Positions 4,010-29,505 of a stretch of DNA of 64,000 nucleotides are shown here, in pieces. This DNA comes from an uncultured delta proteobacterium (GTDB lineage Bacteria > Desulfobacterota > RBG-13-43-22). The translations under genes were made by a program, and so were the position numbers. Position 1 is the first letter of the stretch. Every line of letters starts with the position of its first letter. The notes under the pieces were generated by a model. The model had not been told where the DNA came from. It did not search any database and saw nothing but the letters and a program-made list of their open reading frames with translations. The stretch is taken from NCBI GenBank assembly GCA_963790475.1, contig CAWBOS010000015.1, forward strand, positions 256,001 through 320,000. Reading direction: 5' to 3'.

Positions 4010-4124
4010 CAACCCGTCGATCCTGGCGAAAATTACGTTTTAATCATCTCCGCAGTTTAAAGATCAAGAGCATCACCAAGGGGGCGGAAGCTTTCACCAA
4101 CGCCTCAAAACCTTCACAAACGCG
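4010..4124 (+). repeat. Dispersed repeat, copy R3
   Basis: CAACCCGTC...GAAAATTACGTT...AAGATCAAGAGCATCACCAAGGGGGCGGAAGCTTTCACCAACG. Confidence 0.85.
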
Positions 4125-4159
4125 AATATCTCCTGAGGAAAGTCCAAACCTGTTCGGAA

Positions 4160-5885: not shown

Positions 5886-5960
5886 TCACTTCTGATGAAA
5901 AGGTCGTTCTGAACAATCTCTGCGATTTGAAGATTGGGAACATCACCAAGGGGGCAGAAG
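5886..5960 (+). repeat. Dispersed repeat, copy R4
   Basis: TCACTTCTGATGAAAA...GAAGATTGGGAACATCACCAAGGGGGCAGAAG. Confidence 0.85.
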
Positions 5961-6004
5961 ATGGGGCGGACAGAGTTGCGATAGAAGGTTTGGAAGATGC
6001 GAAT

Positions 6005-6733: not shown

Positions 6734-6737
6734 ATAT

Positions 6738-10125: not shown

Positions 10126-12109
10126 CCCATCTTCCGCAGTTAGAAAGCATGGAAGACGCGATATCAAATAGTTACGACAAGAATTAGGGCATTTTCTTCA
10201 CTACATTTTCAATAATTTTTGGTTTGTTGGGGAGCAGAATTTTCAATCTCTGAAGCAGCACTTTGAGTTCCTTTGAGGGAGTAGCCACCATTCTGAGCCG
10301 GAGGGTTCTCTCCCGCGCCGGTAGTAGCACATCCAAAGATTTCAATTCCCGCAACTCCTCCAACAGCTTTCTTGGGGCGGTACCGAGTCCCGAGGCTTTC
10401 ATCCATTGCTGGAGCGTTCGCCACATAGTCAGCGCCAAGAAGCAGACCAGGATATGAGCCTGGGTCCGTTCCTGTTTTTGATGGAAGATCGGTCGCATTC
10501 CCAGATCATGTTTCTCGGTACGGAATGAATCTTCCACTTCCGTCAGTTGGATGTAGGTATTCCATAGGACTTTCGGGTCACTTTCGGTCCAGTTGGTGCG
10601 CAGGATGTAGCTACCGCCGGTCTCCAAGGCCCACTGTTGCCGTTGTTCGTTCTTCTTGACTTCTAGGGAAAGCGGTGCGTCTTTTCCGGTACCGGTCTCT
10701 ATGACTGTAATATTGAACAACGAGGCCGCACGTTTATTTTGTTCCAGCAGTCGCCCTATTCTCCGCTCGACTTTCTGCTTGTCTCGGAGCTTGCCGGTTT
10801 CGGCCTGGCGGGCCAGGTGATCCAGTTGGCTTTCCAGTCGGGTCAAAAAGTGGTTTAGAATGGCGTTTTCTTTCTCCTTCCGGCCTTGAGACCGGCACAG
10901 GACAAAGATTTCATCCGTTCCTTCCGGCGAGCAACAGAGCTTGACCTCAACACCAGGTTGGACCGCTTCCCAGTTCTGTTCGAAAAGCTGCTGCTCAAAC
11001 TTCTTCAGCATCACTTTTGGGGTGCCGACCAAATAGCGGGCACCGACTTTGCGCATAAACTCCAGATTCTCCTCACTCACCATGCCGCGATCCATAACCC
11101 AGATCCGGTTGGCTTGGCCGTATTTGGCCTCCATCATCTGAACCATCTCTTGGGTCGTCGTGACATCCGGTCGATTGCCGTCAAAAACCTCAAAGGCTAT
11201 GGGAAAGCCCTCTCGGGTGGCCACCAGGCCGATGCAGACCTGGGGACAATCTGGACGACTGTCCCGGCTGTAACCCCTCTTGGCCTGGGCATTGCCCTTG
11301 GCGGTCCCCTCAAAATAGGTGGAGGTTATGTCATAAAACAAAAAATCAAAGCTACTGCCGAACAGTTCCCCATAACGCTCCTGAAGGTGACGGCTTAAGG
11401 CATCCTTGTGGGGAAGCAAGGCATCCAGGGCACGATAAAGCCGATCCTCATTGATCTTATAGTCGGCCACTCCCAGCAGATCGTCTAAGGCCGTCTGGCC
11501 ATACCAAAACTCGGCCATCTGTAATTCCGACGATGGGGCGCAAAAGCGTCCAAGAACTAAAATAGACGCCATGATCGACCAAGGAATCTCTTCCCGGTTG
11601 GAAGGAATATGATCTCGGCAGAACCTGGCAAGCCCCAGTTTGTTCCACAAAAACAACCCCAAATAGACATCGCCGAAGCCTCTGAGTCGCTCGACGCTTA
11701 CGCCATGGATATTGACCGTGGCCCAAGATGGGGGGTCTTCCCCCTGCTCAAACAGTTCAGGTCCAGGTAGAGGCTTTCCGGAAAGAATCCGTCCGATCTC
11801 CTCCCAACCTATCCGCTCTTCCCGATCAAGGCCAGGAAGTTTCCCTATCGTCGCCACTACTCGCTGACGGGGCCCTCGGGCAGTACGGACCGACTCAACT
11901 AAAAGCCAGCTCTCGTACTCCGCTCCACCTTTCTTTTTGGTCGCACGCCGGAGATACATAACCCCATTATCTCCGTTCCCACAGCACCTGGCAAGGGGGT
12001 GGTCTTCACTACATCCAATTTTCAAAGATCAGGACTTGAAATCATTTAACAATTCCTAACAATTCATCACGTTTTTCTTGATTTTTTCTCCAAACTGCGG
12101 AAGATGGGC
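10125..12109 (-). mobile_element. IS1634-family insertion sequence
   Basis: 17-bp TIRs GCCCATCTTCCGCAGTT (10125-10141) and AACTGCGGAAGATGGGC (12093-12109), each flanked by TA. Confidence 0.9.
10184..11959 (-). CDS. IS1634 family DDE transposase
   Basis: FYDITSTYFEG, GYSRD, VMDRG, EDSFR, LGMRPIFHQ motifs; likely start MYLRR at 11959. Confidence 0.92.
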   Translation of the reverse strand: MYLRRATKKKGGAEYESWLLVESVRTARGPRQRVVATIGKLPGLDREERIGWEEIGRILSGKPLPGPELFEQGEDPPSWATVNIHGVSVERLRGFGDVYLGLFLWNKLGLARFCRDHIPSNREEIPWSIMASILVLGRFCAPSSELQMAEFWYGQTALDDLLGVADYKINEDRLYRALDALLPHKDALSRHLQERYGELFGSSFDFLFYDITSTYFEGTAKGNAQAKRGYSRDSRPDCPQVCIGLVATREGFPIAFEVFDGNRPDVTTTQEMVQMMEAKYGQANRIWVMDRGMVSEENLEFMRKVGARYLVGTPKVMLKKFEQQLFEQNWEAVQPGVEVKLCCSPEGTDEIFVLCRSQGRKEKENAILNHFLTRLESQLDHLARQAETGKLRDKQKVERRIGRLLEQNKRAASLFNITVIETGTGKDAPLSLEVKKNEQRQQWALETGGSYILRTNWTESDPKVLWNTYIQLTEVEDSFRTEKHDLGMRPIFHQKQERTQAHILVCFLALTMWRTLQQWMKASGLGTAPRKLLEELRELKSLDVLLPARERTLRLRMVATPSKELKVLLQRLKILLPNKPKIIENVVKKMP

Positions 12110-14888: not shown

Positions 14889-16670
14889 TCAACGGGCAAA
14901 ATGGGTGGCCTGACCGGCCACGATGATCCAGGTGACCAAAAACGCATTTATAAATGAACCCACAAACACATGTCCGGTTTGACGAAAGAAATAGGTCGAA
15001 ACCAGGGCTACAATAGTAAAGATCGGAAGAAACTGGAACATCACAATGGAGGCCAGATGCAAATCCGGAATGGCCAGAGTTCCCCCATTAAAGAGGGGCA
15101 TATACATGATGAAAAGAAATAGGAAGTAACCGCCGATCATGAGTACGATGTTGATCAGCATCTCCCTCCAACCGGTCAAATCGCTTCCGTCTCTCCGACC
15201 GCGCCGCAATTCACCGTGGAGCACCAGACCGGAAATCAGAAAATAAAAAGCAAAGGGGATAAGGTAAGTTAAAAACATCTTAAAATGAAGGACCGACATC
15301 GGTTTCACGGCAAAGACCCAGATGCGGAAATCCGTTTTGAAGGCCCAATCAGAAAAAGCCAGGGACAGATAAGCCCAAAAAACAACCACGATCGCCAACA
15401 GAATAGATTTCCAGAGCTTGCGTCCGGCATGTTCTTTCCAAGCGAAGCCGTAATTGACCAAGCCTCCTCCCTTTTTCTTGTTCGCGATGAAATGCCAGAG
15501 GAGAAACAAAACCAGTGAGATCGCGCCGACCGCCACGGCCCAGAACATTATAGTAGTGGTTATCTCCTGCCTCCAGAGCCAACTTTTCTTGGCAATGCCC
15601 TTCCCGTTAAAAGCCCAGGCCAGGACATACAGGGGTAGGGGAAGAAGAATAGTGATCACTGCTCCCACCCACCAGCCCCAGCCGGAGGTTGGTTTTCGTT
15701 CGGCAGGGGTTTCGTTTAATTCATCGAAAAATGGGGTTCGCATTAGACACCGGCCCACAGGGAAGAGGAGGAGGACCATTCCGATCAAAGCAATCAAGGT
15801 CCCAAATTCTTTCCAATACCAGATCTGGTTGGATGGCGGCAAGTTATTCCCACCTTTTAAGGTGGTTTGCATCCATTCAATGGCATTCCCGATGGCCTGC
15901 CTTGAAAAATGAACCCGGGGATGGATCGTGCTCGGCTGATAAAGTTTTCTGGCCGTACCGTTCTCGATCGAACCGTAGAGCTTACCGACCACCACCGGCT
16001 CGGTAGTTCCAAAAACCTTTTTGAGTTTGTCGGTATTGACGATATTAACCGGAACCGGCGAGCCCCACATAAGACCGGAAAACTCATCATATTTGGAGAA
16101 GATAAGGGCCATGTTGCGCGGAAAATCCGCGGTTCCATCCGGAGCCCCTAAAGTCCCGGTTGATGAACTGGCCAGGATCAGGGATTTATATCCGTCTTTA
16201 TTGGCAGCGGCGGCTATCACCGATGCCCAGCCACCCATGGAATGACCTTCCAGACCGATATTATTGAGATCAACGATGTCCAGGGTCCGCAAATACTTCA
16301 GGCTATCCAGACCGCCGAAACCGTTGGCAAAGGCCGGGGGATCGGAAAAACCGTGTCCCGGTTGATCAGGGGCCAGAACGACATAACCGCGTCTGGCAAA
16401 TTCTATGGCAAAACCGTCTTGGGTTTCTCGGGAGTTGATATATCCATGGGTAGCGACGATTCCGGGAGCCGGATTCTTTTTGCTCACCCCTTTTGGCACA
16501 TAAAGCAAGGCACTGACTAACTTACCGTCACCCCCCATAAACCGTAGATCCCTGACCTGAATCCCACCACTGGTCTGGATGAAATAAGCGAGCAAACCTC
16601 CACCCAGGATAAATACTAAGGCTAAAATCAATAAACTGGTCAACGGCTTCTTCTTAGCTGTTTCGTTCAT
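14889..16670 (-). CDS. Membrane-anchored alpha/beta hydrolase with multi-TM C-terminal domain
   Basis: HGY oxyanion motif, GHSMGG nucleophile elbow, N-terminal TM and hydrophobic C-terminal half. Confidence 0.85.
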   Translation of the reverse strand: MNETAKKKPLTSLLILALVFILGGGLLAYFIQTSGGIQVRDLRFMGGDGKLVSALLYVPKGVSKKNPAPGIVATHGYINSRETQDGFAIEFARRGYVVLAPDQPGHGFSDPPAFANGFGGLDSLKYLRTLDIVDLNNIGLEGHSMGGWASVIAAAANKDGYKSLILASSSTGTLGAPDGTADFPRNMALIFSKYDEFSGLMWGSPVPVNIVNTDKLKKVFGTTEPVVVGKLYGSIENGTARKLYQPSTIHPRVHFSRQAIGNAIEWMQTTLKGGNNLPPSNQIWYWKEFGTLIALIGMVLLLFPVGRCLMRTPFFDELNETPAERKPTSGWGWWVGAVITILLPLPLYVLAWAFNGKGIAKKSWLWRQEITTTIMFWAVAVGAISLVLFLLWHFIANKKKGGGLVNYGFAWKEHAGRKLWKSILLAIVVVFWAYLSLAFSDWAFKTDFRIWVFAVKPMSVLHFKMFLTYLIPFAFYFLISGLVLHGELRRGRRDGSDLTGWREMLINIVLMIGGYFLFLFIMYMPLFNGGTLAIPDLHLASIVMFQFLPIFTIVALVSTYFFRQTGHVFVGSFINAFLVTWIIVAGQATHFAR

Positions 16671-16752
16671 GATGCCTCCTTAATATTAAATTGTAATAAG
16701 TGGTTGTGTTTTAACCTCCTTTCTCTTGGGACTCGATTTTATTATCCAAAAG

Positions 16753-16822
16753 AAAAAGCCCGGATAGAAACGACCACTGCCTTTAAGTGTTCATTTACTA
16801 TCAGGGCTTTCTCTTTATTCTC
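16753..16822 (-). promoter_or_regulatory. Putative GlpP antitermination leader (terminator plus binding motif), copy 1
   Basis: GAGAATAAAGAGAAAGCCCTGATAG...CTATCCGGGCTTTTT; 24/25 nt identical to the glpA leader. Confidence 0.7.
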
Positions 16823-16978
16823 TCACCCCGAAAGTTCGAATAATGAAATTTTCTTTTAAAGAGAACTGTTATATAGAATAGCCGTACAAGTCAAGGCTTT
16901 TTTTTGAAGAAAACTTTTTCGAATTGACAGCTTTTTCTCTTTACCGTATCGGCGTCAAGCCAGATTTTACTCCTTTTC

Positions 16979-17548
16979 CTAAAGATCAAAGAGATGGGAT
17001 GCGGTAGTGGAAACCCCGACTGCCCCGGAAGTCAGGATCTCCCGGATCTCTTCCTTCTCGGTGATCAACCCTCCGGCGATGATCGGGATTGAAGTGAGCA
17101 TCCTTATTTTTTTCATAATCTTGGGGAGGATCAAACCGGGAAGGATCTCTACAGCGTCAGGTTTTGACTTCTCCACAGTGCCAAGCCCGCCCACCAGAGA
17201 TTCCGAATCTAAAACAAATACCCTTTGAATAGCAAAAAGCCCTTCTTTTTGGGCACTTTTGATGAGATTGCCGCGGGTGGTGATGATTCCGTTTATTTGA
17301 CTTTCTTTAGCCAGAAATCGGATCCCCGGAGCATCTTTCCCGATTCCCTTTATGAGATCAATATCGACCAAAACCAGCTTCTGATGGAGTTTTGCCTGTC
17401 GCACGATTTTTGGGAGATCGAAAATGGTTCCACCCAGGATAAAAAGAACATTGGTGTGTTCCAAACTTTGAAATCGAAGATTTTCAATGTCCCTGATGGC
17501 TGCTATCACCGGTCTGCTTTTCAGAGCCGACAAAAAATCCATAGGCAA
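16979..17548 (-). CDS. glpP: Glycerol-3-phosphate-responsive antiterminator
   Basis: PVIAAIRD, VDIDLIKG, GIITTR, IQRVFVLDS, VEILPG, PIIAGGLI, GVSTT motifs; adjacent to glpK. Confidence 0.92.
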   Translation of the reverse strand: MPMDFLSALKSRPVIAAIRDIENLRFQSLEHTNVLFILGGTIFDLPKIVRQAKLHQKLVLVDIDLIKGIGKDAPGIRFLAKESQINGIITTRGNLIKSAQKEGLFAIQRVFVLDSESLVGGLGTVEKSKPDAVEILPGLILPKIMKKIRMLTSIPIIAGGLITEKEEIREILTSGAVGVSTTASHLFDL

Positions 17549-17681: not shown

Positions 17682-19163
17682 TCATTCTATCCAGTCGAAA
17701 GTCCGCGAGACGGCCTTTTTCCATCCGCCATAGAGTCCTTCCCGTTTCGAGGCCTCCATTTGGGGGTTCCATTCTTTGTCTCTGCCCCAGTTGAGACGCA
17801 ATTCATCCAAATTTTTCCAAAAGCCAACGGCCAGCCCGGCGGCATAAGCGGCGCCCAAGGCCGTGGTTTCCGCCACCTGGGGACGGATAACCGGCACGTT
17901 CAGCATATCCGCCTGAAATTGCATCAACAGTTCGTTGAAGACCATACCACCGTCCACCTTGAGGGCCTTCAGCCGGACGCCGGAATCCTTTTCCATGGCG
18001 TCAAGTACTTCTCGGGTCTGGTAGGCGGTGGCTTCCAGCACGGCCCGCGCAATGTGCCCCTTGTTGATATAGCGGGTCAGGCCTACGATAACCCCCCGGG
18101 CGTCCGATCTCCAGTAAGGAGCGAACAGTCCGGAAAAGGCCGGGACGAAATAAATTCCGCCGTTGTCTTCCACCGTACCGGCCAACGCTTCAACGTCGGC
18201 GGATTTGGCAACCAGGCCCAGGTTGTCGCGCAACCACTGGACCAGGGCCCCGGCAATCGCGATTGATCCTTCCAGGGCATAGACGGCCTTCTGAGGACCG
18301 ATCTTGTAACCGACAGTGGTCAGCAGTCCGCTGTTGCTGGGCACCGGGAGTTCGCCCATGTTTAACAGCATGAAACAGCCGGTCCCATAAGTGTTCTTGG
18401 CCTCGCCGGGATTAAAACAGGTCTGCCCGAATAGGGCCGCTTGCTGGTCGCCCAGATCACCCCCCACCGGCACGCCCCGAAGAATATCCTTCGCCTCCCC
18501 ATAGACTTCCGACGATGAACGAATCTTCGGAAGCATGGCCCGGGGAATATTCAGCAACTGCAGGATTTCTTCATCCCAGTCAAGACTGTTCAAGTTCATC
18601 AGCAGAGTGCGCGAGGCATTAGTTACATCGGTGATGTGAACGCCGGTCAGATTCCAGATAAACCAGGTATCAATATTTCCGAAAAGCAATTCGCCGTTCT
18701 CGGCCTTTTTTTGGGCACCCGGGACATGGTCCAGGATCCATTTTATTTTAGGCCCGGAGAAATAGGTGGCCAACGGCAGGCCGGTTTTGCCACGCAGACG
18801 GTCCTGGCCGCCATGCCTGGCCAGCTCCTGGCAGATGAGGTCGGTGCGGGTGTCCTGCCAGACAATGGCATTATAAACCGGAACGCCGGTAGACTTCTCC
18901 CAGACCACCGTTGTTTCACGCTGGTTGGTCACCCCGACGGCCGCAATATCGCTGAGGGAGACACCGATTTTTGTCAAGGCTTCGCGGATCACTTCCCGGG
19001 TGTTGTTCCATATCTCCAGGGGATCGTGTTCCACCCAGCCCGGTTGAGGAAATATCTGCCGGTGCTCTTTCTGCGCCAACCCGGCGACCCGGCCGCTGTG
19101 ATCAAAGAGGATGAACCGGTTGCTGGTCGTTCCCAGATCCACTGCACCGATGTATTTGGCCAT
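17682..19163 (-). CDS. glpK: Glycerol kinase
   Basis: [38 protein letters not shown]; start at MAKYIG. Confidence 0.97.
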
Positions 19164-19267
19164 GGTTTGCTCTCCTAAAAAAAAAATATAGTCTGGAGTT
19201 ATGAGTTCGGAGTAAATAGTTCGGAGCAAAACCTAATGACTCTGAACTCCGAACACCGAACTCGCAT

Positions 19268-20875
19268 TTACTGATTTTGAAGATGCTCCGCCAGATAGGT
19301 ATAGATATCCTTTACGCTCATATCAATATCTTCTCCCAGTTTAGCACAACTCAGATGAATCCGGCATTTGGGACAGGCGGTAATCAGTTCTTTGGCGCCG
19401 GTTTGCTGCGCTTCTAATAGACGTTCGGTCTGGATGGCCTTGGAACAACTGGAGCATTCCGTCCAGGCGCTTGTCCCGCAGCAAAGGGCATTTTCCCGGT
19501 TCCGCTCCATCTCTATGAGTTCTGTTCCGGGAACAAGTTTTAATAATTGCCTTGGCGGTTCATAAATCCCGGCCCCCCGTCCCAGTCGGCAGGAGTCCTG
19601 ATAGGTGATTACCCCCCCGGAAGACGGTCGCAGCTCCAATCCGGCTTTCGGTATTTCTCGAGCGAAAAATTCGGTCAGATGAACCACTTCAAAGGGCAGT
19701 TTCCCAAAGTATTTAGGGTAAGAATACTTAAAAGTCGCGTACCCCTCCGGGCAACTGAACAAAACGGTTTTGGCTCCGGAGGCTTTAATGACCTCCAGAT
19801 TCCATAAGGCCAACTCGCGGAAGGTATCCTCTTCCCCGCACCAGAGGGCATCGTGTCCGCAGCACCTTTCGTCATTGCTGATGACCGGCTCTATTCCAAT
19901 TCGGTTCAGCAAGGTCAGTGCACTCCGGGCGCTGTCTAAAGGTAAAATATTCAAATAGCGAAAGGTGATATCGAAATACGGCAGGCAGCCGACAAAAAAG
20001 AAATAGTCCCCCTTTGATTTGAAATGACCTGCCTTTTCCGCCCAGGTTGTTCTTTTCTGCGAAAGGGGATGTCTATGCAGACGGGCAATGACCTGTTGAA
20101 TCCCATGATGGCTTTCCATGGGGACATTCCCGGTTTTCCGAGCCCGGTTTCGAAAAGTACGGTTGAATTCCGCGATATCGATCCGGGCCGGACAGCGCGT
20201 ATTGCATTGGCCACACCCCAGACAGGACCAGACCTCGCGGCTCTGCAGAATCTCGTCATCGAGCCCCATAGCGGTTTGATTAATGATCCGCTTGGGGGAG
20301 AAGCGGGGATTTTCACGGTTCACCGGACAAGTCGCGTTACAACTGCTGCATTCCATACAAGCGGCAATCTGCTCTTTGCTCAGTTGGGGCGGCCCGTTTT
20401 CAAACACCTGGTAATCCGGAGGCACTACCCCGGAGAGATCCCATTTTCTATAATCTTGAAGGGGTTTTTCTTTCAGCCCTTGGAGAAATTGAGTAAAATC
20501 CTGGATCTCCCTGGCGAACTCGGCCCCTTCCGAGGCGGAAATCCATTTGACCCTGAGCCGACGTTCTTCAATTCCCAAAAGCCGCAGATACCCCTGGGTT
20601 TCTTCGATCACCCGTTGGCATTTCACATTACCTTCCAGGTAATGGCAATCGCCGATGTGTCAGCCGGCGACCAGGACGCCCTGGGCACCTTCGGCAAAGG
20701 CCTTCAGAAGGAAGCCGGAATGAATCCTTCCCGTGCACATCAATCGAATCAAGCGCACATTCGGTGGATACTGGATTCGTGAAATCCCCGCCAGATCGGC
20801 CCCGGCATAGGCGCACCAGTGACAGACAAAGGCGAGAATTTCAGGCGGATCGGTTAAAGGCATGCATGGCTCCAA
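19268..20875 (-). CDS. MvhD-HdrD-like fusion selenoprotein (Sec UGA at 20660-20662)
   Basis: MvhD CHWC/RLMCTGR/G-U-HIGDCHY in frame with two 4Fe-4S and two CCG domains; SECIS-like hairpin after the UGA. Confidence 0.85.
20626..20644 (-). promoter_or_regulatory. Bacterial SECIS-like hairpin
   Basis: CATTACCT-GGA-AGGTAATG stem-loop starting 15 nt after the in-frame UGA. Confidence 0.7.
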
Positions 20876-20934
20876 AATTCATTCTTAATTTTTCTTTTCC
20901 GAACGAATCGAAATTGAAAACTTTAACAACCTTA

Positions 20935-21136
20935 TTCACCGCAAAGGCGCGAAGGACGCAAAGAAGGATTATTATTGATTGCCGGTAAGGGGCCGGCAAT
21001 CAATAAGCTTCGCCTGCACCTTCCGGTAATTATTTGGCCGGGGGCCGATGTCCCGCCTTGGCGGGATTCAATGCCGCCTCTCACGGGATTGAACAATATA
21101 GATGGTTTTCTCTGCGTTCTTTGCGTCTGCGGTGAA
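20935..21136. repeat. Nested-palindrome intergenic element with ~9-mer repeat arms
   Basis: TTCACCGCAAAGGCGCGAAGGACGCAAAG / CTCTGCGTTCTTTGCGTCTGCGGTGAA arms; internal 14-bp stem. Confidence 0.7.
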
Positions 21137-21149
21137 AAACTCTTCTCAA

Positions 21150-24100
21150 TCACGAACGAAAGGCCCTGATCATGCCCTCAATCTGATCGTCCTGAAAATG
21201 AGCCGGGGAGACCGCGCCCGTGGGGCAGACCACATTACAGGCCCCGCACCCCGTGCACAAACTTTCATTGACCACAGCCCTTTTCCGTCCCTCCTCATCT
21301 GTCTTGGACTTTTATGGCCTCAAACAAACAGGTCTTCTCGCATTCTCCGCAGGCCCGGCAGAGATCCATATCCACCTGGGCAATCATCCCCTCGGCAGTC
21401 ATCATTTTTTTGGACAGAACCGTCATGGCCCTGGAGACGGCCCCTCGGGCCTGGGTGATCGATTCAGAGGCGAATTTGGGACCTTGAGCCAGACCACACA
21501 AATAAAAACCCGGTTTGATGAAATCAAGGGGCCTGAGTTTCGGATGGGCCTCCATGAAAAAACCATCCTGATCCAGGGGGAGCCGCATAGTTTCCGCCAG
21601 CTTCTGACCTTCAGGGTTTGGACGAATAGCTGAGTTCAAAACCAAAAGGTCCGCTTCCAACCGGACAGGCATCCGAAGTTGTTGGTCAAAAACGGTCAAG
21701 CTTAGCCTTTCCTCTTCGATGCTCACTTCCGGTTTTTGATCTCTCACATACTGGAAAAAGCGGACCCCCTTGATCCGGGCCTGTCGATAATAGGACTCGC
21801 GAAGGCCGAAGGTGCGCAGGTCACGATATAAAATAGAAACCTGCACCCCCGGATTCAATGATTTCAGTTTCAAGCTGTTCTTCACTGCCCCGGTGCAGCA
21901 CACACGGCTGCAATAAAGATGATCCGGTTCCCGGGAGCCCACACACTGAATCATCACCACCCGCGAATATTTTTTAATTTCCTCCGGTCTCAAGGCCAGA
22001 AGGGATTCAAAAGTCTTGCGGGTGATGACCCGCGGGTGACTTCCGTAATGATATTCATCCGGTTCATATTCCCGGCCGCCGACGGCGACTATGGTCACCC
22101 CATGAACGATTTCCCTGGATTCATCCCCGGCCAATATCGTCGTTGTAAAATGACCGCAGGCGCCCTTGGTCTCGACCACCTGGGCATTGGTGAAAACAGT
22201 AATCAAAGGTTCCTTGTCAACTTTACTGATCAGGAGTTCCACATACTCGGCCGGATTGGCCCCATCTTCGGTGAAATAAAGGTCACGTGCATTCCCCCCT
22301 AACTCATCGGTCCTCTCCACTAACACCGCCTCGTATCCCTGTTCGGCGATGGTTAAGGCGGCGGTCAGCCCGGCCAGACCCCCACCGACTATCAAAGCCC
22401 TTTGAACGACCGGATAGGTCGTTTCCGGCAAGGGGTTCAACAGTCGGGACCGGGCGATGGACATCCGCACCAGATCTTTGGCCTTTTGAGTGGCAGCCTT
22501 CGGATCCAAACGATGTACCCAGGAATCATGTTCGCGAATATTGGCCAGGTCGAAAAGATAGGGATTGAGTCCCGCCTGCCTCAAGGTGCTCTGAAAAAGC
22601 GGTTCATGGGTCCGCGGCGTGCAGGCCGCGGCCACGATACGATTAAGCCCGTGTTCGGCGATGGCTTTCCTGATTTCGTTCTGTTGATCGGTGGAACAGG
22701 CGAACATGCAATCCGCGGCATAGACGACATCAGGAAGACCTCGGGCATACTCAGCCACCGCTTTGACATCCACCACACCGGCAATGTTGATTCCGCAGTG
22801 GCAGATAAAGACACCAATTCGCGGTTTTTCATGGGACACATCTCTTTCCTTCGGTAGAGGGCCGGCTTCAATCATCATTTTGCCTCTGACCTCGGAAAGC
22901 AGGGTCATCGCCTTGGCCGCCGCAGCGCTCCCCTGCTGCACCGAATCGGGAATGTCTTTAGGACCCTGTAAACTCCCGCAAACATAAATCCCTTCCCGGG
23001 AGGTATTGACCATATCCAGGGGATCGGAAACACAAAAGCCGTGGTCATCGAGTTCCAGGCCCATCTTAAGCGCCAGGCTTTTTGCCGAGGGATGGGCACA
23101 GAGGCCGACCGAAAGGACAACCATATCATAAGTCTCTTCCTGAATAAGACGGCTGGAATCTACGTAAGTCAGGTTCAAGGTGTCCTCTTCCGGATTAGGG
23201 ACAATACGAGAGATCATCGACCGGACAAATCGCACTTTATGTTCGGTCTCCGATCTCTCATAGAAACGATCAAATCCTTTTCCGTAGGCCCGAAGGTCGT
23301 TATAGAAAATAGTGGTTTCGGTCCCGGACTCCTGTTCCTTGGTGATCAAGGCCTGTTTTACCGCCGACATGCAGCATACCGAAGAACAATAGTCTTGTCC
23401 GATATGGCTGTCTCTGGAGCCCACGCATTGAATCCAGGCCATTCGCCGGGGTTTCTTTCCATCGGAAATCCGTTGAATACGACCGCCGTAGGGACCGGCG
23501 GCGGATAGTATTCTTTCATATTCGAGACTGGTAATCACATTGGGCCAGCGGCCATAACCGTATTCCGCTTTGCGCCGGGCATCAAAGGGTTCTACGCCCC
23601 CGGCCAGAATAATGGCCCCGGTTTTCAAAAGGATGGTTTCATCCTCCTGTTCAAAATCAACAGCTTTGGTTGGACATATTTTTTCACAGATACGGCATTG
23701 ACCTTCGGTGAAGTAGCGGCAAAACCGCTTATCAATGGTATAAACCAGGGGGACCGCCTGGGGATAGGGAATGGAAATGGCCCGGCGATGATTCAAGCCC
23801 AGATTGAAAGAATCGGGGACTTTCATCGGGCACTTTTCCGCACAAAGGCCGCAGCCGATACATTTTTCAGGATCGACGGCCCGGGCCTTTTTTTTAAGGG
23901 ATAACTGAAATCGCCCGGCATGGCCTTCCAACCCAAGCACCTCGGTAAAGGCCAGAATTTCAATATTGGGATTTTGGGTCAGCTCAACCAGTTTAGGACC
24001 CATCATGCAGGCCGCACAATCATCGGTAGGAAAGGTCTTGTCCAGTTGGGCCATGATGCCGCCCACATTGGGCTTCTCCTCCACCAGATGGACTTTAAAA

Positions 24101-24192
24101 CCCGAGTTGGCGGCATCCAGGGTCGCTTGAATACCGGCGATGCCCCCGCCGATGACAGTGATGGAGCCGATTTTTTTGGAATCCTTATTCAA
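21150..24192 (-). CDS. hdrA: Heterodisulfide reductase subunit A-like (duplicated-type, ~1013 aa); +1 frameshift near 21305
   Basis: GGGIAG and GGGLAG FAD sites, LDKTFPT, two QCVGSR...YCS..CC motifs; final ferredoxin CTGCGACNVVCP lies in the +1 frame. Confidence 0.88.
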
Positions 24193-24265
24193 ACCAGTCC
24201 TCTTTTAAATACCTTTTTACCTGATCCGAAAAAGTCGAAGCTAATGAAAGCTGAATCAAACCGTC

Positions 24266-24508
24266 CTCTCGCCCGCTCCCCTCGGTCACTTGAGCACACA
24301 GAGATCGCAAAGAAAACCTTCCTATCTGGTCTGATTTCCTGAGAGGGGAAATCAGACCACCATTCTCGGCCTATGGCACCTGAAATTCCGGCCAGTCTTC
24401 TTTGGAGAAAACATCTTTTCGGCTATAGCCGAATGAGACGTCTTGAACAGAAGCGGCCTCTCCCCGCTTCCGTTCTAACTCTGTGTACTCTGGGCGCTCT
24501 GTGAGAGA
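24266..24508. repeat. Nested-palindrome intergenic element
   Basis: GAGCACACAGAG / CTCTGTGTACTC arms; internal TGGTCTGATTTCC/GGAAATCAGACCA stem. Confidence 0.6.
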
Positions 24509-24519
24509 TAAAATTTTTT

Positions 24520-25386
24520 TCATGAAGGACCTAACAGCCCCAATTCACGCAAGAGGGGCAATGGATCGGTAATATGCTTGGAAAGCCCTTTTTTCACGCC
24601 CTCCACCCCTAAGGCCAATCCGATCAACTCGGTAAAATAATAAATAGGAAGGGGTGATTCTTCTCTCGAAGCACTTCCCGCCCTTTCAAGGTGCATATCC
24701 AGATTGGCCTGACACATCTGGCAGGAAACCATAACTCCCTGGGCGCCGACCCGCCGAGCCATATCCAAAATTTTTTCCACTAGACTCAGCTCAACACGCC
24801 TCAAAGAAAGGGCCTGTGAGGCACCGCAGCAATCCGTTTTATAGGGCCAGGGGATTGGCGTCGCCCCCAGATTGGCGACAATGCGGTCCAGGGCTTGGGG
24901 ATCTTCGTAATCTGTAGCCCCGGTGATCTCCGGCGGCCGGTTGGCCATGCAACCGTAATAACAGACTACCTTTAACCCCTCGAGGGGCTTCCGGATTTTT
25001 TTGGCCACGGCTTCCAACATCTTTTCCGTGGCAAAAAAATTGGCCAGATCCCAGATGGCAGGAACCGAATGCGGCAACGTTATTCCCAAGCGATTATTTT
25101 GATCCTGCTGTAAGGTGTAAGAGGCCCTCTTCAAACGATTGAAACACATGGGACAGGGAACCAGCATTTCTGAATGGGGCATTTCCGCTGCCAAGGTCAA
25201 GGTCCTGGCGGCCAGGGCAACGCTGACCCGGCGATCAAGGCTGTGGGCTGCAGTGGCCCCGCAGCAGTTCCAATCCGGAATTTCATCCAGTTCAATGTCC
25301 AGAAAATCGCAAAGACCGGCGACGGATTCGGCATAATCTTTGGCCGTTCCTTTGAGAGAACATCCCGGATAATAAGTAAATTTCAT
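24520..25386 (-). CDS. hdrB: Heterodisulfide reductase subunit B
   Basis: YYPGC, WNCCGA, CPMC, YYGC, DCCGA, CQMC (two CCG domains). Confidence 0.9.
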   Translation of the reverse strand: MKFTYYPGCSLKGTAKDYAESVAGLCDFLDIELDEIPDWNCCGATAAHSLDRRVSVALAARTLTLAAEMPHSEMLVPCPMCFNRLKRASYTLQQDQNNRLGITLPHSVPAIWDLANFFATEKMLEAVAKKIRKPLEGLKVVCYYGCMANRPPEITGATDYEDPQALDRIVANLGATPIPWPYKTDCCGASQALSLRRVELSLVEKILDMARRVGAQGVMVSCQMCQANLDMHLERAGSASREESPLPIYYFTELIGLALGVEGVKKGLSKHITDPLPLLRELGLLGPS

Positions 25387-25391
25387 CAGAT

Positions 25392-25970
25392 TTATTTCCC
25401 CGGACTGCTTTTACTAAAAATTCGGTTTATCTCTTTTTTGTTTTTGTTCTTTGAAGGCCGAAAGGGCATTCGGCCTTTGGAAAACAACTTCCATCCCAAT
25501 CCAAGTTCCGCCACCAGGGTGCGGTCTTTCCACTTACCGAGGAGCTGACCGCTTTTCAGCAGATAGGTCGGCAGGAGGGTAGTTTCAAACACCCGGCCCT
25601 GTTTCTTGATTTGTTTTAAAAAGCTTTGATGCCATTGTAAAACCTGAGGCTCCGGGCAGGGAATATTTTCCCGAACGGCTATTTCCTTGAGTTGATCCAT
25701 GAGTTCGGCGATCCGAACCTCATTAGGACAGCGGGTGGTACAGGTTTCACAAGCCGCGCACACCCAGATGGTTTTGCAGTTCAGCACTCTTTCCCGCTGA
25801 CCCAGGATCACCAGGCGGATAACTTCATCGGGAAATAAGTCCATGGCAAAAGCCACCGGACAGCCGTTGGTACACTTACGGCATTGGAAGCAGGCCCCGG
25901 CTTGAAACGGCCCTTCTTTTTCCAAGGTTTCTAATAATCGATAATCTGGCGATAAGGTTTCCTGCACCAT
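25392..25970 (-). CDS. hdrC: Heterodisulfide reductase subunit C
   Basis: CFQCRKCTNGCP and CAACETCTTRCP; upstream of hdrB. Confidence 0.88.
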   Translation of the reverse strand: MVQETLSPDYRLLETLEKEGPFQAGACFQCRKCTNGCPVAFAMDLFPDEVIRLVILGQRERVLNCKTIWVCAACETCTTRCPNEVRIAELMDQLKEIAVRENIPCPEPQVLQWHQSFLKQIKKQGRVFETTLLPTYLLKSGQLLGKWKDRTLVAELGLGWKLFSKGRMPFRPSKNKNKKEINRIFSKSSPGK

Positions 25971-26004
25971 ACTGATTCCATGTTATTTAATTAATAAATC
26001 ATAA

Positions 26005-26089
26005 ACATAATTTTTGCCGCGACGAGACCGGCGAATGCAGACCAAACGACCGATTTTTGCCGGACAATTGTCGTCCAGCAAAATTATGT
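26005..26089. repeat. Short MITE-like element
   Basis: ACATAATTTTTGC ... GCAAAATTATGT terminal inverted repeat. Confidence 0.5.
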
Positions 26090-26127
26090 GTGGGTCCGTG
26101 TCAAAAAAATACTTCTTAAAAAATATA

Positions 26128-27426
26128 TTAATGGTTCTCTCTTTTCACAATTTCGATAAAAGCCTTGACCGCCCCCAAGGCCGTGGCCACAGCCAGCCCG
26201 GTGCCGCATTTCTCCCTTTTCCAATCCTGATGAGCCAGAATGGAACCGGCTGCAAACAGGGCAGAAAAGGCCGGTGTTCCATGACGATTCAGCGGACGGA
26301 AATGTTCGTCGATCTCCACTCCGGCCTGGTTTATCGGATGTCCCTGTCGGTCAAAAAAATCATCCCGGTGCCACATTTTTCTGCTCTCGGGTTGGTAAAC
26401 ATGGAGATTGAATATCGTTTCCCGAATAAATTTTCGATCAGCGGCCAACCCTCCGCCGAAAAATCGGCCCGTGGCCAGGATGACCCCAGAGGAAATAATC
26501 GTCTGCTTTCCGGTGGTCCTGTCGATTCCGAGCTCAAATGCTCCACCCGATCCCTGTCGGGCTTCAACCACTTTTTCTTGGGAAAAATAGCAGGGCCTTA
26601 TTTCACGCAGCCCCCGTTCAAAGGCCTCTTTCAGACGAAGCCCGGGAATAGAAGGGGGCATGGTCGGAATTTCAAAGACCGGAACGCCGAGCAACTCCGT
26701 TAAATCAGAAATCACCTTTGAGGATTGATACAATCCTAAAACGGCAGGAAGTCCGACGCATTTTGCTCCTTTAATCTCCGGCCGTATCACTCGGGCCAGC
26801 TTCTCCCGATTGCCCCCCAGAACCAGGGCATTGGCCATATGTTCCGGCAATACTTCCTCCCGGTGTCCTTTTCCAGGAAACATAACCCGGGCAGTTCGCA
26901 ACCCCGGCCATCGGTCCTTCAAATTTTCAGCAATCAAACCGGCACTGAACCCTTTGAGTCCTTTGAATTCGACGATCAGGCAGGGGCGCTTCTGCGCCAA
27001 GGCCTCCACCCCTGCCCACATAGTCCGAGGCAGGCAATAGGTTGTCTTGACCGTTCCCAAAGGGGTAACGATTCGGACATTGCCAGCGGGATTCCTGGAA
27101 TAGGGAAGCCCTACCCCGTCCAAAAAATCCAATAATTCGTCAAGGGCTTCTTGAATTTCTTTTTTTGGTGTCCGGGCATAGGGGTGTCCGGGTACATCCC
27201 TGGCCAAGGTTTCAATTCCGGCCCAGGGATCATCCCCTTGCTTCCCTTCTCTTATCGGATGAACGCTGAATAAATCAAAAAAACCGCTGGCTAATCCGAT
27301 TTCACTGGTGTGGCCCACCTGGGCCACTGAAAGACCCCTGTTAGCGGCGAAGAGAGTAGCCGCCATACCGGCCATACCGGCTCCGATGATGGTTAAATCG
27401 ACTTTTATATGTTCTGCTTCGGACAT
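26128..27426 (-). CDS. glpB: Anaerobic glycerol-3-phosphate dehydrogenase subunit B
   Basis: IIGAGMAG, LPAVLG, EIPTMPPSIPGLRL, LATGRFFGGGL, LFAAGSIL. Confidence 0.92.
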   Translation of the reverse strand: MSEAEHIKVDLTIIGAGMAGMAATLFAANRGLSVAQVGHTSEIGLASGFFDLFSVHPIREGKQGDDPWAGIETLARDVPGHPYARTPKKEIQEALDELLDFLDGVGLPYSRNPAGNVRIVTPLGTVKTTYCLPRTMWAGVEALAQKRPCLIVEFKGLKGFSAGLIAENLKDRWPGLRTARVMFPGKGHREEVLPEHMANALVLGGNREKLARVIRPEIKGAKCVGLPAVLGLYQSSKVISDLTELLGVPVFEIPTMPPSIPGLRLKEAFERGLREIRPCYFSQEKVVEARQGSGGAFELGIDRTTGKQTIISSGVILATGRFFGGGLAADRKFIRETIFNLHVYQPESRKMWHRDDFFDRQGHPINQAGVEIDEHFRPLNRHGTPAFSALFAAGSILAHQDWKREKCGTGLAVATALGAVKAFIEIVKRENH

Positions 27427-27528
27427 CTTATGAAAATTTCTAGCATTTATCTTCAGTTTGAAAATAGAGCATTCAAGGCTATGGCCTCTAATCTGAATTC
27501 TGACTCCTGGATTCTGTATTCTATAATT

Positions 27529-29109
27529 TCACTCCTCCAATTCTAATCCGAACAACCCGCAGTGCATGGCCTCCAACAGTTCGGCCTGTTGAAGCTGTTG
27601 GCCCCAGAGGATTGGACGCAGCCCTTTCCACCGGCTGCGGACAAATTCCCTGAGGCTGTCCAAGGACTGTCCGACATCAGACTCCCCCCGATCAAACAGG
27701 TAGGCGGTCAGACGGGGCCCGCAAAAAGCACCCTGGCAAGGGCCCTTGCCGATTCGGCTGCGCAATCCGATTCCCTGAAGGTCTGCTTTTTCCCCCTGGT
27801 TACGGATGGAACCGGCAATCGAATCAACGGCACTCCTGGGAACCATCTCACACTCACAGAGAATAATATCCTCCGGATCATGCCCTTTCATCCATATCTT
27901 GGGAGCCGAGGCGGGTTCAGTCCACCGGCCGGGCTGGGATGCCGGTAACGGTTCGGTTCGGGTAAGACAGGGTTTTGAGATTCCCAGGTGTTGACAAACC
28001 AGGTCGGCTGTCTTTTCGGCCATTAGTCGATAAGTGGTCAGCTTTCCCCCGCTGATGGTGATAAAGTTCTCGACACCCTGTGGGCCGTGATCCATGAGGG
28101 TAAAACCACGGCTGACTTTGCGATCATCCCCCTCTCCCGGTAAACCAATTAACGGCCGCACACCGCAATAAGCCCGAATATAACGGGTTGTCTCCAAGGC
28201 CGGGATCATGGCCCCGGCATCTTCCACCATCAAATCGATTTCTTCAACAGTCGGATAGGCCTTTTCCGGACTTTTTATTCGAATAGAGGTGGTGCCCAAA
28301 ATGGAAACCGTCCCCCCCGGAACCAATATGTCGGCATTAGAAGGAGGTCGTAAACGGTTTATAACCTTTCGGGCCAATCGATCATGGGTAATTAACAGAC
28401 TCCCTTTGGAAAAGAGAACCGGAATGGGAATTCCTGCCAGACCGGCCACCAGACCGGCCCAGGCACCGGCGGCATTAATGACCACGTCGGCCTCGACCAG
28501 AATCTTCTCCTCCGTTCGGGTGTTTTGTAATTGAACAGACTTTATTTTGGATGCGCCGATATCAAAAGCTCGAACCTCGGTGTGACTTAACAGGCGGGAG
28601 CCAAGCTGCTGAGCCTGGGCCATATTGTCCAGAGATAATCTAAAGGGATCGATGGCGGCATCCTGGACCTTATAAGCGGCGACGATCAGTTCTGAAAGGA
28701 CCGGCTCCAATTGACGGGCTTCTTTCAAATCAAGCGCTTGAACGGGAACACCGGAACGGTCGCACATTCCCGGAAAATCGGCGACAAAATGCTCGTCATC
28801 TCCCTGAACGGCCACGAACAAACCACCGGTATCTTCGACACATTGGGCGGTAAGGTTTTTCAACAACTTTCCTTCTTCCCGGCACTCCCTGGCCGCCTCA
28901 GGATCGGAGAAGGCATAGCGGGCTCCGCTATGCAAAAGTCCATGGTTTCCCCCTGAAGCACCGGCATTGATGTCTTTTTTTTCAACCACAAGGCACTGAA
29001 CACCGCGCAGGGCCAGGTCCCTCGCCAGACCGGTACCGGTAGCCCCTCCCCCGATGATGAGCGCCTGGGTCTTTATCAGACGATTCTTTGAACTAAGACG
29101 ATCTTCCAC
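27529..29109 (-). CDS. glpA: Anaerobic glycerol-3-phosphate dehydrogenase subunit A
   Basis: IIGGGATG, NHGLLHSGARY, GGKLTTYR, C-terminal BFD-like CECE/CQG..C; GTG start chosen downstream of the leader terminator. Confidence 0.93.
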   Translation of the reverse strand: MEDRLSSKNRLIKTQALIIGGGATGTGLARDLALRGVQCLVVEKKDINAGASGGNHGLLHSGARYAFSDPEAARECREEGKLLKNLTAQCVEDTGGLFVAVQGDDEHFVADFPGMCDRSGVPVQALDLKEARQLEPVLSELIVAAYKVQDAAIDPFRLSLDNMAQAQQLGSRLLSHTEVRAFDIGASKIKSVQLQNTRTEEKILVEADVVINAAGAWAGLVAGLAGIPIPVLFSKGSLLITHDRLARKVINRLRPPSNADILVPGGTVSILGTTSIRIKSPEKAYPTVEEIDLMVEDAGAMIPALETTRYIRAYCGVRPLIGLPGEGDDRKVSRGFTLMDHGPQGVENFITISGGKLTTYRLMAEKTADLVCQHLGISKPCLTRTEPLPASQPGRWTEPASAPKIWMKGHDPEDIILCECEMVPRSAVDSIAGSIRNQGEKADLQGIGLRSRIGKGPCQGAFCGPRLTAYLFDRGESDVGQSLDSLREFVRSRWKGLRPILWGQQLQQAELLEAMHCGLFGLELEE

Positions 29110-29184
29110 TACCACCCCAAAAAATAGAAAAATATTTCTCGAAAAATTTCCCGCATCGAGTATTCTTGAAGATCTTGGATCAAC

Positions 29185-29256
29185 AAAAAAGCCCTGATGG
29201 ATGACGAGCATACCCTCGGAACGCTTATCACCTATCAGGGCTTACTCTTTATTCTC
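29185..29256 (-). promoter_or_regulatory. Putative GlpP antitermination leader, copy 2
   Basis: GAGAATAAAGAGTAAGCCCTGATAG...CCATCAGGGCTTTTTT terminator between the promoter and glpA. Confidence 0.75.
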
Positions 29257-29300
29257 GTGCCCCAATACATCGTTAAATAAAATTTCCTTTTACTGCATGA

Positions 29301-29329
29301 AATGTAAGTAAAATTGACTTTCATGTCAA
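29301..29329 (-). promoter_or_regulatory. Sigma70 promoter TTGACA-17-TACATT of the glp-hdr operon
   Basis: Consensus -35 with 17-nt spacer upstream of the leader. Confidence 0.6.
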
Positions 29330-29387: not shown

Positions 29388-29417
29388 AAAAAAGGGTTAG
29401 AGGAAACCTCTAACCCT
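29388..29417 (-). terminator. Rho-independent terminator after tRNA-fMet
   Basis: AGGGTTAGAGG-TTT-CCTCTAACCCT followed by a T-run. Confidence 0.8.
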
Positions 29418-29428
29418 GTGTGTGTTTT

Positions 29429-29505
<77 letters not shown>

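Follow-up and report, generated by a model that had tools for sequence, protein, structure and literature searches.

A gene cluster joining glpAB to hdrCBA and a selenocysteine-type mvhD::hdrD fusion in an uncultured lineage of Thermodesulfobacteriota suggests a soluble route from glycerol-3-phosphate to Hdr-like proteins

In sulfate-reducing bacteria, the route by which electrons from dehydrogenases operating near -190 mV, such as those of lactate and glycerol-3-phosphate (G3P), reach sulfite reduction is a long-standing question. The usual suspects for this route, on which there is almost no biochemistry, are DsrC and proteins resembling heterodisulfide reductase (Hdr). Here we describe a gene cluster, glpA-glpB-hdrC-hdrB-hdrA-mvhD::hdrD-glpK-glpP, in which an Hdr-type module stands between the genes for anaerobic G3P dehydrogenase and that for glycerol kinase; it is encoded in the genome of an uncultured member of Thermodesulfobacteriota (assembly GCA_963790475.1, contig CAWBOS010000015.1). 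The whole stretch that was analysed, 64,000 nucleotides (nt) from position 256,001 to position 320,000 of that contig, is called the window in what follows, and its first letter is position 1.

Several described systems come close to this arrangement. Strittmatter et al. (2009) reported glpAB beside the gene for a membrane-bound HdrF in Desulfobacterium autotrophicum HRM2 and read this as electron transfer to Hdr (PMC2702500), and a species description published in 2024 gives clusters of 'glpK, heterodisulfide reductase-like, glpBA' in Desulfovibrionales as a gene list, with no functional analysis accompanying that list (PMC11505543). The initial annotation of the window, made by a model from the letters, had cautioned that similar arrangements might already be in print, and this list justifies the caution; a described GlpAB-HdrABC enzyme was not found in the literature searched. 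For Syntrophobacter fumaroxidans, confurcation onto DsrC by an HdrABC/HdrL-MvhD complex (Sfum_0819-0824) has been proposed (PMC5947623). As for G3P itself, Schut, Poole and Adams (2026) purified FngABC of Pyrococcus furiosus, a ferredoxin- and NAD-dependent G3P oxidoreductase that allows fermenters to deal with G3P by means of reduced ferredoxin; in the same paper, GlpABC enzymes are proposed to bifurcate to quinone and NAD, and 118 of 4,273 GlpA-type loci are given as lacking GlpB or GlpC, whereas neither an association of GlpAB with Hdr nor Hdr neighbours are mentioned in its main text (PMC13689815).

The genes of the cluster run in one direction, on the minus strand, between 16.9 and 29.5 kb of the window (Table 1), and every gene that the initial annotation had named was recovered in the claimed order and direction and at about the position assigned to it. 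The start of hdrB lies 5 nt after the end of hdrC, the terminator scan detected no strong terminator inside the operon, and all reading frames of the window's operon other than hdrA are intact. Gene calls and domain search found no gene for a hydrogenase, a formate dehydrogenase or an Flx donor inside the cluster, and none of the cluster proteins contains a 19-residue window with a Kyte-Doolittle mean above 1.8, the few windows at 1.6-1.8 including two GxGxxG dinucleotide-binding stretches of HdrA; as far as domain search and hydropathy reach, the claim that the cluster encodes no hydrogenase, flx or membrane subunit holds.

The Glp proteins score above the cut-offs of their family models (GlpA, 570.5 bits against 552.8 for TIGR03377; GlpB, 584.7 against 345 for NF003725; GlpK, 743.2 against 590 for TIGR01311), and GlpA carries at its C-terminus a CxC...CxxxxC motif of the BFD-type 2Fe-2S kind, CECE...CQGAFC. 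The start of glpA is most likely GTG 29115 or 29109 because the ATG at 29211 falls inside the leader terminator stem. By contrast, no protein in the whole genome scores above the TIGR03379 cut-off for GlpC (best, 80.2 bits against 279.9), the best candidate being LdhH-, GlcF- or TfrB-like and below each of those cut-offs as well, which extends to the genome the earlier observation that a stand-alone glpC is missing. Within the cluster, the best GlpC score belongs to the HdrD domain of the MvhD::HdrD fusion (PRK11168, 81.8 bits against a cut-off of 278). This score, although below the cut-off, bears out the resemblance of the domain to GlpC, for which the initial annotation proposed that it may stand in.

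The HdrC-like and HdrB-like proteins retain the expected motifs. The HdrC-like protein has two CxxCxxCxxxC motifs (TIGR03290, 60 bits against a cut-off of 160), and the HdrB-like protein has two CCG domains with the full five-cysteine signature in each (Cys 9, 41, 42, 78 and 81, and 142/146, 186, 187, 222 and 225; TIGR03288, 116 bits against 345). The hdrA gene is duplicated in tandem: the halves of its product share 33% identity over 307 residues (E 3e-34), and a GxGxxG motif is present in each, two in all. Overall it matches the methanogen HdrA (PDB 5odc_A) with E 2.2e-193, in three permuted stretches, namely, residues 13-377 against 148-508, 455-633 against 2-180 and 863-961 against 505-600. 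The N half consists of a flavoprotein core with an inserted 2x[4Fe-4S] domain, and the C half combines the cluster domain known from the N-terminus of HdrA with another flavoprotein core and with the C-terminal ferredoxin domain as far as its first half; the HdrA2 model gives 933.9 bits against a cut-off of 1100, and the HdrA domains are all present, spread over the two cores, with the last cysteine motif out of frame in the window. The genome contains only this one glpAB and, elsewhere, at least eight further tandem (two-core) hdrA loci (contigs C6, C10, C12, C13 and C15), at most 53% identical to the window's copy and in most cases followed by mvhD. The Hdr complement of this genome is unusually large.

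The mvhD::hdrD gene is a single frame only when the TGA at 20660-20662 is read through, which yields VLVAG-U-HIGDCHY. This TGA is apparently read as selenocysteine; it is kept in frame in three relatives (L009, L011 and L012) and is replaced by the cysteine codon TGC in a fourth (L010), and the genome encodes SelB (390.6 bits against a cut-off of 242). An 8-bp hairpin begins 18 nt after the UGA, and the 76-nt fold is no better than that of shuffled sequences (z -1.0) in what is a coding-constrained sequence. In order, the fusion contains the MvhD domain (PF02662, 30.2 bits against 22.3, for the segment beyond the TGA), then 2x[4Fe-4S] motifs and, last, a pair of CCG domains of the GlpC/HdrD-like type, with invariant cysteines; the read-through protein scores 109.4 bits with the VhuD model (cut-off 215) and 182.7 bits with the C-terminal part of HdrA2.

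The linkage of these genes is conserved beyond the window. When one genome per species with GlpB was scanned (32 loci, with a threshold of 60 bits for Hdr matches), it was found in five loci (L009-L013), three of which (L010, L011 and L012) show the complete gene order; the contig of L013 stops in hdrC, and L009, from a metagenome-assembled genome (MAG), has glpA-glpB-hdrA-mvhD::hdrD-glpK without hdrC and hdrB and with a 226-nt gap (11027-11253) that contains no N. Beside glpAB, with or without glpK, the other 27 loci had no Hdr match at or above the threshold. An even sample of the phylum comprised 401 genomes, 84 of them with GlpB at E 1e-20 or better, and 75 of the 85 GlpB places outside the window were examined, the 10 weakest or fragmentary ones being omitted. 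The hdr-linked order was present in G384, G070, G138 and G286 and, split over two contigs (L054 and L125), in G031; the remaining 70 of these 75 loci across the phylum did not show it next to glpAB. Among the 10 genomes sampled from the genus, all five that are GlpB-positive have the linked order, which additionally occurs in one further MAG, and the five GlpB-negative genomes are also without an orthologue of mvhD::hdrD, their best matches having E values of 3e-43 to 4e-54, compared with 3e-218 or lower for the GlpB-positive five. In metagenome contigs, hdrC directly follows glpB at seven of 21 loci (L147-L153), and one of these, L152, has only 52% GlpB identity, yet shows the whole order through glpK.

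Phylogenetic analysis placed the seven glp-linked HdrD domains in one group (support 100/100) among 11 unlinked orthologues and the nine hdr-linked GlpB copies in one group (95/96) among 19 others. Both trees, which are unrooted and consist of kindred sequences, contain the same deep split, with G031 and L152 on one side and the rest on the other, and they indicate one origin and joint inheritance rather than independent recurrence. The synteny for which the initial annotation proposed a search was found in all sampled GlpB-bearing members of the genus and in metagenome contigs, and the link of glpAB to hdrCBA and mvhD/hdrD is upheld, physically and evolutionarily, by conserved synteny, by co-presence and co-absence in the genus and by congruent trees. 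Within the genomes and contigs searched, the arrangement does not extend beyond a single uncultured lineage of Thermodesulfobacteriota, of genus level.

In the rest of the phylum, glpAB has other neighbours. Of the first 60 loci, 37 have a GlpC-like gene adjoining glpAB (33 detected by motif scan and four more, L068-L071, by tblastn only), encoding about 400-450 amino acids (aa) with two Fe-S motifs and two CCG domains; at three loci (L056, L058 and L064), two dicluster domains are fused to a NarI-like membrane domain and an HdrB-like gene is also present, and in the remaining ones either no such gene lies within 4 kb or a contig end intervenes. In 15 further loci, an HdrD-like match stands beside glpB in nine and HdrA in none. 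A tandem hdrA-mvhD pair 4 kb from glpABK in genus g133 (L059 and L060) was considered as a second case of linkage and rejected, being part of a separate convergent unit: positions 1-7500 of these loci encode, in one direction, tandem hdrA, mvhD, an FrhB/FdhB-like protein and the small and large subunits of a [NiFe] hydrogenase, convergent with glpA-glpB-glpK, and no CCG gene lies within 4 kb of those glp genes.

Orthologues of mvhD and hdrD, full-length or as adjacent genes and 46-61% identical, are found in many families with no glpB nearby; orthologues of the module in other families, again without glp genes, are 46-66% identical. Of the eleven such places that were compared (L114-L124), several have the order hdrC-hdrB-tandem hdrA-mvhD-hdrD with another hdrA and another mvhD after it, and in one of them, from a sister genus (L115), open reading frames (ORFs) resembling the small and large subunits of [NiFe] hydrogenase come next, identified by N-terminal sequence motif only. 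In this locus (2654-4949), the large-subunit gene appears as two overlapping ORFs (2654-3493 and 3312-3995), which may reflect a selenocysteine codon or a frameshift. The hdr module of the window therefore has counterparts that stand without glp genes, and it looks borrowed, as if such a block had come to lie between glpB and glpK.

The HdrA proteins of the lineage differ in one major respect. That of G138 (L053, 2860-7314) has 1484 aa and contains, at residues 159-553, an insert of Fer4_20 and Pyr_redox_2 domains (Pfam), a GltD/NfnB-like NAD(P) module located between what are residues 155 and 165 of the window's protein; G286 (L065, 12526-16818) has an HdrA insert of the same size and position, detected by tblastn only. 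The insert is absent from the window's 965-aa HdrA and from the other linked loci that reach that far, and tblastn detected the same insert in the non-glp orthologues L114, L117-L119, L121, L122 and L124. It is a natural presence/absence polymorphism. The interpretation of this 1.4-kb interruption of hdrA (L010/L053 and L065) as an insertion element was rejected, the GltD-like domain pair being in frame in L053.

GlpP and leader antitermination control the glp regulon of Bacillus subtilis, and the cluster described here has comparable components. The CTTGACA box of the promoter is conserved in all eight aligned leader sequences, and the 126 nt between promoter and glpA form a long terminator hairpin followed by a T-run (-40.1 kcal/mol, z -3.18, with none of 200 shuffles as good). 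The leader is conserved ahead of glpA in six relatives; over the eight aligned sequences its stem is 96% paired, compared with 27-52% for slid partners, and only three pairs are changed on both sides. In the 6.34-Mb genome, the covariance model has two strong matches only, at 124 bits (glpA) and 102.2 bits (the second copy, E 2e-19), the next match on the forward strand being at E 0.08; Rfam matched four tRNAs only in the window, and the leader is not among its curated families. Because leader terminators occur together with glpP at the end of the operon, antitermination of the GlpP type is proposed, with the glpA leader as a candidate target of the antiterminator. The likeness to the B. subtilis regulon consists in the PF04309 protein and in leaders that end in an intrinsic terminator before glp genes, whereas the present case is in a Thermodesulfobacteriota genome and has a leader sequence of its own, to which GlpP would bind in a G3P-dependent manner.

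Three long spacers, between glpA and glpB (27427-27528), hdrB and hdrA (24193-24519) and hdrA and mvhD (20876-21149), consist of dispersed repeats, with 16, 18 and 67 blastn matches, respectively, in the same genome, the query included. The element of about 205 nt in the last of these is about 70-81% identical to its matches, and read depth over it rises to 141 in metagenome run X3; the repeats resemble a family of miniature inverted-repeat transposable elements (MITE) or of repetitive extragenic palindromes (REP). Related strains are without them: contigs skip 320-332 nt at 24204-24539, a contig of run X4 skips 103 nt at 20965-21069, and the gap between hdrB and hdrA is only 40 nt in L011. 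The long spacers were considered as borders of separate transcription units, which was rejected, the spacers being dispersed repeats; nor is the hdrA-mvhD spacer a regulatory region of its own. With slightly less than even confidence, we suggest that the genes from glpA to glpP are a single G3P-inducible operon with a promoter and a GlpP-type attenuator ahead of glpA.

The second leader copy precedes a gene for a protein of 593 aa with an Abhydrolase match at residues 37-185 and about eight hydrophobic segments in the C-terminal half, of which residues 280-593 match no Pfam family. This gene is probably G3P-regulated, together with the glp operon, because the leader ahead of it is the only one in the genome besides that of glpA, and the product could be a lipase or esterase that frees glycerol. 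On the other side of the operon, rplQ and rpoA lie upstream (Pfam), and the tRNA-Met and its terminator are the end of this rpoA-rplQ unit; the same tRNA-Met adjoins glpA in L051, L053 and L065. Following rpoA-rplQ-tRNA-Met, there is no synteny in six other genomes of the genus. An IS1634-family transposase (10184-12025; 331 bits, above the cut-off) is encoded about 5 kb beyond glpP. The SelB search also returned two EF-Tu-like ORFs of 399 aa (45491-46690 and 62273-63472; 197.1 and 197.0 bits), which are the usual tuf duplication flanking the region of ribosomal protein, rpoB and rpoC genes. None of the 11 runs listed with parts of the stretch is an RNA run, and the metagenomes concerned are, by their labels, from freshwater sediment, sediment, wetland, soil and groundwater; the runs aligned to the window were X1-X4 (freshwater sediment, sediment and wetland), and the shares other than that of X1 were small.

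Table 1. Positions of the genes and signals of the glp-hdr cluster and its borders within the window
Feature	Coordinates	Strand	Basis
tRNA-Met (CAT)	29429..29505	-	ARAGORN and Rfam
Terminator hairpin, 11 bp, 3' of tRNA-Met	29393-29417	-	terminator scan
Sigma-70-like promoter, TTGACA-17-TACATT	29301..29329	-	10/12 consensus positions
glpA leader and terminator hairpin (stem about 29189-29243) with T-run	29178..29303	-	folding, conservation
glpA, FAD subunit of anaerobic G3P dehydrogenase	27529..29115 (ORF to 29211)	-	TIGR03377, DAO domain
glpB	26128..27426	-	NF003725
hdrC-like, 2x[4Fe-4S] motifs	25392..25970	-	Fer4_8, Fer4_17
hdrB-like, two CCG domains	24520..25386	-	PF02754, two stretches
hdrA-like, tandem-duplicated, 965 codons	21295..24192	-	5odc_A match, HdrA2 model
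Last 41 codons of hdrA, other frame	21150..21275	-	comparison with four in-frame relatives
hdrA-mvhD spacer with dispersed repeat of about 205 nt	20876..21149	-	blastn against own genome
mvhD::hdrD fusion, 535 aa, selenocysteine (putative) at residue 72	19268..20875	-	translation with TGA=U, domain matches
glpK, glycerol kinase	17682..19229	-	TIGR01311
glpP, G3P-responsive antiterminator family	16979..17548	-	PF04309, 197.5 bits
Second leader and terminator copy, ahead of hydrolase gene	16744..16869	-	direct repeat, covariance model
Alpha/beta-hydrolase fused to hydrophobic C-terminal half	14889..16670	-	Abhydrolase matches

The initial annotation read the cluster as an electron-bifurcating G3P oxidation to disulfide and ferredoxin. 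The relevant potentials are -190 mV for the pair of G3P and dihydroxyacetone phosphate (DHAP), about -450 mV for ferredoxin and -320 mV for NAD (PMC13689815). With G3P and ferredoxin at these values, the second acceptor of a bifurcation would, under standard conditions, have to lie near +70 mV, which speaks against the proposed direction. We know of no sulfur acceptor of sulfate reducers near that potential, and bifurcation from G3P to ferredoxin and a disulfide is thermodynamically poor. Because G3P is too weak to drive the reduction of ferredoxin together with that of a disulfide, confurcation is favoured. Hence the earlier interpretation is retained in part: the wiring stands, with synteny, one promoter and one leader ahead of glpA, and neither a GlpC nor a membrane subunit, in its favour, whereas the direction does not and is probably reversed.

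The sequence of events that we envisage starts with GlpA, which would oxidise G3P; through GlpB, the electrons would then reach a CCG/iron-sulfur protein in the manner of GlpABC. The docking partner of GlpB would in the first place be the GlpC-like HdrD domain, with HdrCB as the alternative; the HdrD domain is favoured because it is the nearest to GlpC in the cluster and is kept in L009, where hdrCB is lost. The fused MvhD domain would pass the electrons on to the flavin of HdrA, where one pair from G3P could be combined with one pair from reduced ferredoxin to give about -320 mV, which would suffice to reduce NAD(P)+ and, plausibly, a protein disulfide; the acceptors would lie near -300 mV. 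Reduced ferredoxin would come from a 2-oxoacid:ferredoxin oxidoreductase at a later step of glycerol breakdown, the oxidation of glycerol to acetyl-CoA giving G3P and reduced ferredoxin in a 1:1 ratio. For this genome, the predicted acceptor is the disulfide or trisulfide of a protein such as DsrC, its reduction taking place at the CCG sites of HdrB and/or HdrD, and in the two sister strains with the GltD/NfnB-like insert in HdrA, NAD(P)+ may be an acceptor as well. The genome contains dsrAB (615 bits) and POR-type genes, and the suggested check for dsrC returned a canonical DsrC with both C-terminal cysteines (C-terminus CKMAGLPKPTGCV). Tentatively, and just short of an even chance, we favour the view that the product of the cluster is a soluble enzyme that depends on G3P and ferredoxin to reduce DsrC or a different disulfide, with an NAD(P)-linked form in the strains that have the insert. 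That GlpAB, HdrCBA and MvhD::HdrD form one soluble supercomplex, which would be the first Hdr-type flavin-based confurcating enzyme with an organic high-potential donor and would join the GlpA/FngA and Hdr families, appears more doubtful.

Several points weigh against this confurcating reductase. The absence of hdrCB from L009 means that the composition of the module is not fixed and that either CCG site could be the entry or the exit. In the orthologous clusters without glp genes, the counterpart of mvhD::hdrD is not the MvhD that adjoins the hydrogenase, and this order weakens the analogy in which MvhD is the entry for the donor. The genome has no match to a glycerol facilitator of the MIP type (PF00230, MIP/GlpF), DsrC as acceptor is a guess, and, the linkage being confined to one genus-level lineage, its conservation could partly result from recent common descent. 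In addition, the window's own frameshift ahead of the last cysteine motif of HdrA could impair the ferredoxin-side domain. The hdrA frame stops at 21295, between the two cysteine motifs of the C-terminal ferredoxin domain, and the second motif lies at 21150-21275 in a displaced frame; four relatives are continuous here, and therefore the window has one extra base near 21302. The contigs of the near-identical metagenome run X1 (61% of words) carry the window's form at depth 4, and in run X3, from a related strain, a contig omits one base at 21302 (depth 8.06 of 10.3). Either a genuine frameshift or an error of low coverage may be behind this, X1 being a possible source sample. If the frameshift is real and removes the second cysteine motif of the HdrA ferredoxin domain, the operon could be partly non-functional in this genome, a decay to which the dispersed repeats in three spacers would also be suited, as would the presence of the frameshift in X1 and its absence from the strain in X3. 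However, the other reading frames remain intact, a depth of 4 in what may be the source sample is compatible with an assembly or read error, and the displaced 41 codons are open and preceded by a GTG, 13 nt after GGAGGG, that could permit their separate translation; on balance, we consider such decay rather unlikely.

The remaining alternatives concern what the Hdr module does for GlpAB. In bifurcation, G3P electrons would pass via MvhD::HdrD to the HdrA flavin and from there uphill to ferredoxin and downhill to a disulfide at HdrB. Such wiring would copy that of MvhAGD-HdrABC, MvhD, HdrA, HdrC and an HdrB with complete CCG sites being encoded, and the C-terminal ferredoxin domain of HdrA is intact in the relatives; nevertheless, thiol/disulfide and sulfite/sulfide couples are generally placed far below the potential required of the downhill acceptor, and the reaction would run only at extreme G3P/DHAP ratios with a weakly reduced ferredoxin pool, which makes this direction improbable. 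Conversely, energy coupling could be dispensed with altogether, if the HdrD domain and/or HdrCB simply replaced GlpC and reduced DsrC or another thiol carrier directly, leaving HdrA and MvhD as a mere wire or as a branch towards the pools of NAD(P) and ferredoxin. By customary potentials, G3P at -190 mV reduces sulfite-level acceptors unaided, and the diversity of CCG proteins paired with glpAB elsewhere in the phylum (GlpC-like, or NarI-like membrane plus HdrB-like), as well as the loss of hdrCB alone from L009, is in keeping with plain replacement. It offers no reason, though, for a large two-flavin tandem HdrA and an MvhD with selenocysteine in every linked locus that reaches that far, or for the NAD(P)-type insert in HdrA of the sister strains, and we regard both the direct reduction and the subordinate role of HdrA and MvhD as unlikely. 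It is also conceivable that the hdr module is independent, serving for instance a hydrogenase encoded elsewhere, and merely landed in the glp operon, GlpAB having another acceptor. Orthologues of the module without glp genes, in one annotated locus beside a hydrogenase, the variability in the genus of the region after rplQ-tRNA-Met, the IS1634 transposase 5 kb away and the other tandem hdrA loci of the genome, at least eight in number, are all compatible with such hitch-hiking. Yet a search of the genome revealed neither a GlpC nor an alternative partner of GlpAB, the hdr genes are enclosed by glpB and glpK and follow the only leader, each of the 10 genomes sampled from the genus has either both glpAB and this hdr orthologue or neither of them, and the order persists down to 52% GlpB identity, with agreement of the GlpB and HdrD trees, so that mere hitch-hiking appears very improbable.

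If the more doubtful supercomplex exists, sulfate reducers would have a membrane-independent route from glycerol to sulfite reduction, and two of the five known bifurcation families (GlpA/FngA and Hdr) would be fused in one machine. Genetically, GlpAB stands inside an HdrABC-MvhD module behind an attenuator of the G3P type, which provides a small, defined and soluble set of proteins for the link between G3P, ferredoxin and DsrC (or NAD(P)). The Hdr core appears modular, the same hdrCBA-mvhD::hdrD block being found without glp genes, in L115 beside a hydrogenase, and here with GlpAB, and the natural variants with and without the NAD(P)-binding insert predict different acceptors. The arrangement points to a new way, proposed here, by which electrons from glycerol would enter the chemistry of sulfur and ferredoxin.

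On the Glp side, one of the closest known systems is GlpABC of Escherichia coli, with which the present GlpA and GlpB share their families, above the NCBIfam cut-offs. The E. coli GlpC is a protein with 2x[4Fe-4S] and two CCG domains, and the HdrD domain is alike in this respect; the difference is that the cluster has no GlpC gene but HdrC, HdrB, tandem HdrA and MvhD::HdrD in its place, and that nothing in these sequences hints at a membrane or quinone link. The E. coli GlpC is likewise described as having no membrane helix (PMC13689815). In D. autotrophicum HRM2, likewise a sulfate reducer, glpAB adjoins the gene for a CCG protein of the Hdr type, as it does in our lineage; HdrF, by contrast, has transmembrane helices and is accompanied by neither HdrA nor MvhD, and it is the loci L056, L058 and L064 that are similar to HRM2. 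FngABC is related through its G3P-oxidising subunit, a member of the GlpA family, and for it the reduction of a mid-potential acceptor by G3P plus reduced ferredoxin, only proposed here, has been demonstrated, whereas FngB and FngC are unrelated to GlpBC and to Hdr according to the same source (PMC13689815). By analogy, the glp-hdr system would be the Hdr-based counterpart of FngABC.

On the Hdr side, homologues of HdrA, HdrB, HdrC and MvhD with the expected cysteine motifs are shared with MvhAGD-HdrABC of methanogens (PDB 5odc). Here, however, the donor module is GlpAB and not a hydrogenase, with a donor potential about 220 mV above that of H2 at the customary value for the latter; HdrA consists of two cores fused in tandem, over which its domains are redistributed, MvhD forms a fusion with a second CCG protein and has a putative selenocysteine, and all Hdr proteins are below the NCBIfam equivalog cut-offs. 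Closer in kind are FlxABCD-HdrABC and HdrABC/HdrL-MvhD, which, as described, also combine soluble HdrABC and MvhD with no hydrogenase in a DsrC-containing organism, and NAD-binding inserts like those of HdrL occur in HdrA of the sister strains; as far as these systems have been described, their donors are Flx or of the NAD(H) type rather than GlpAB, and none is given as lying inside a glycerol operon. Judged by its genes, the GlpAB-Hdr operon contains no protein that scores as GlpC and resembles HdrABC-MvhD, and it appears to be a combination of the two known kinds.

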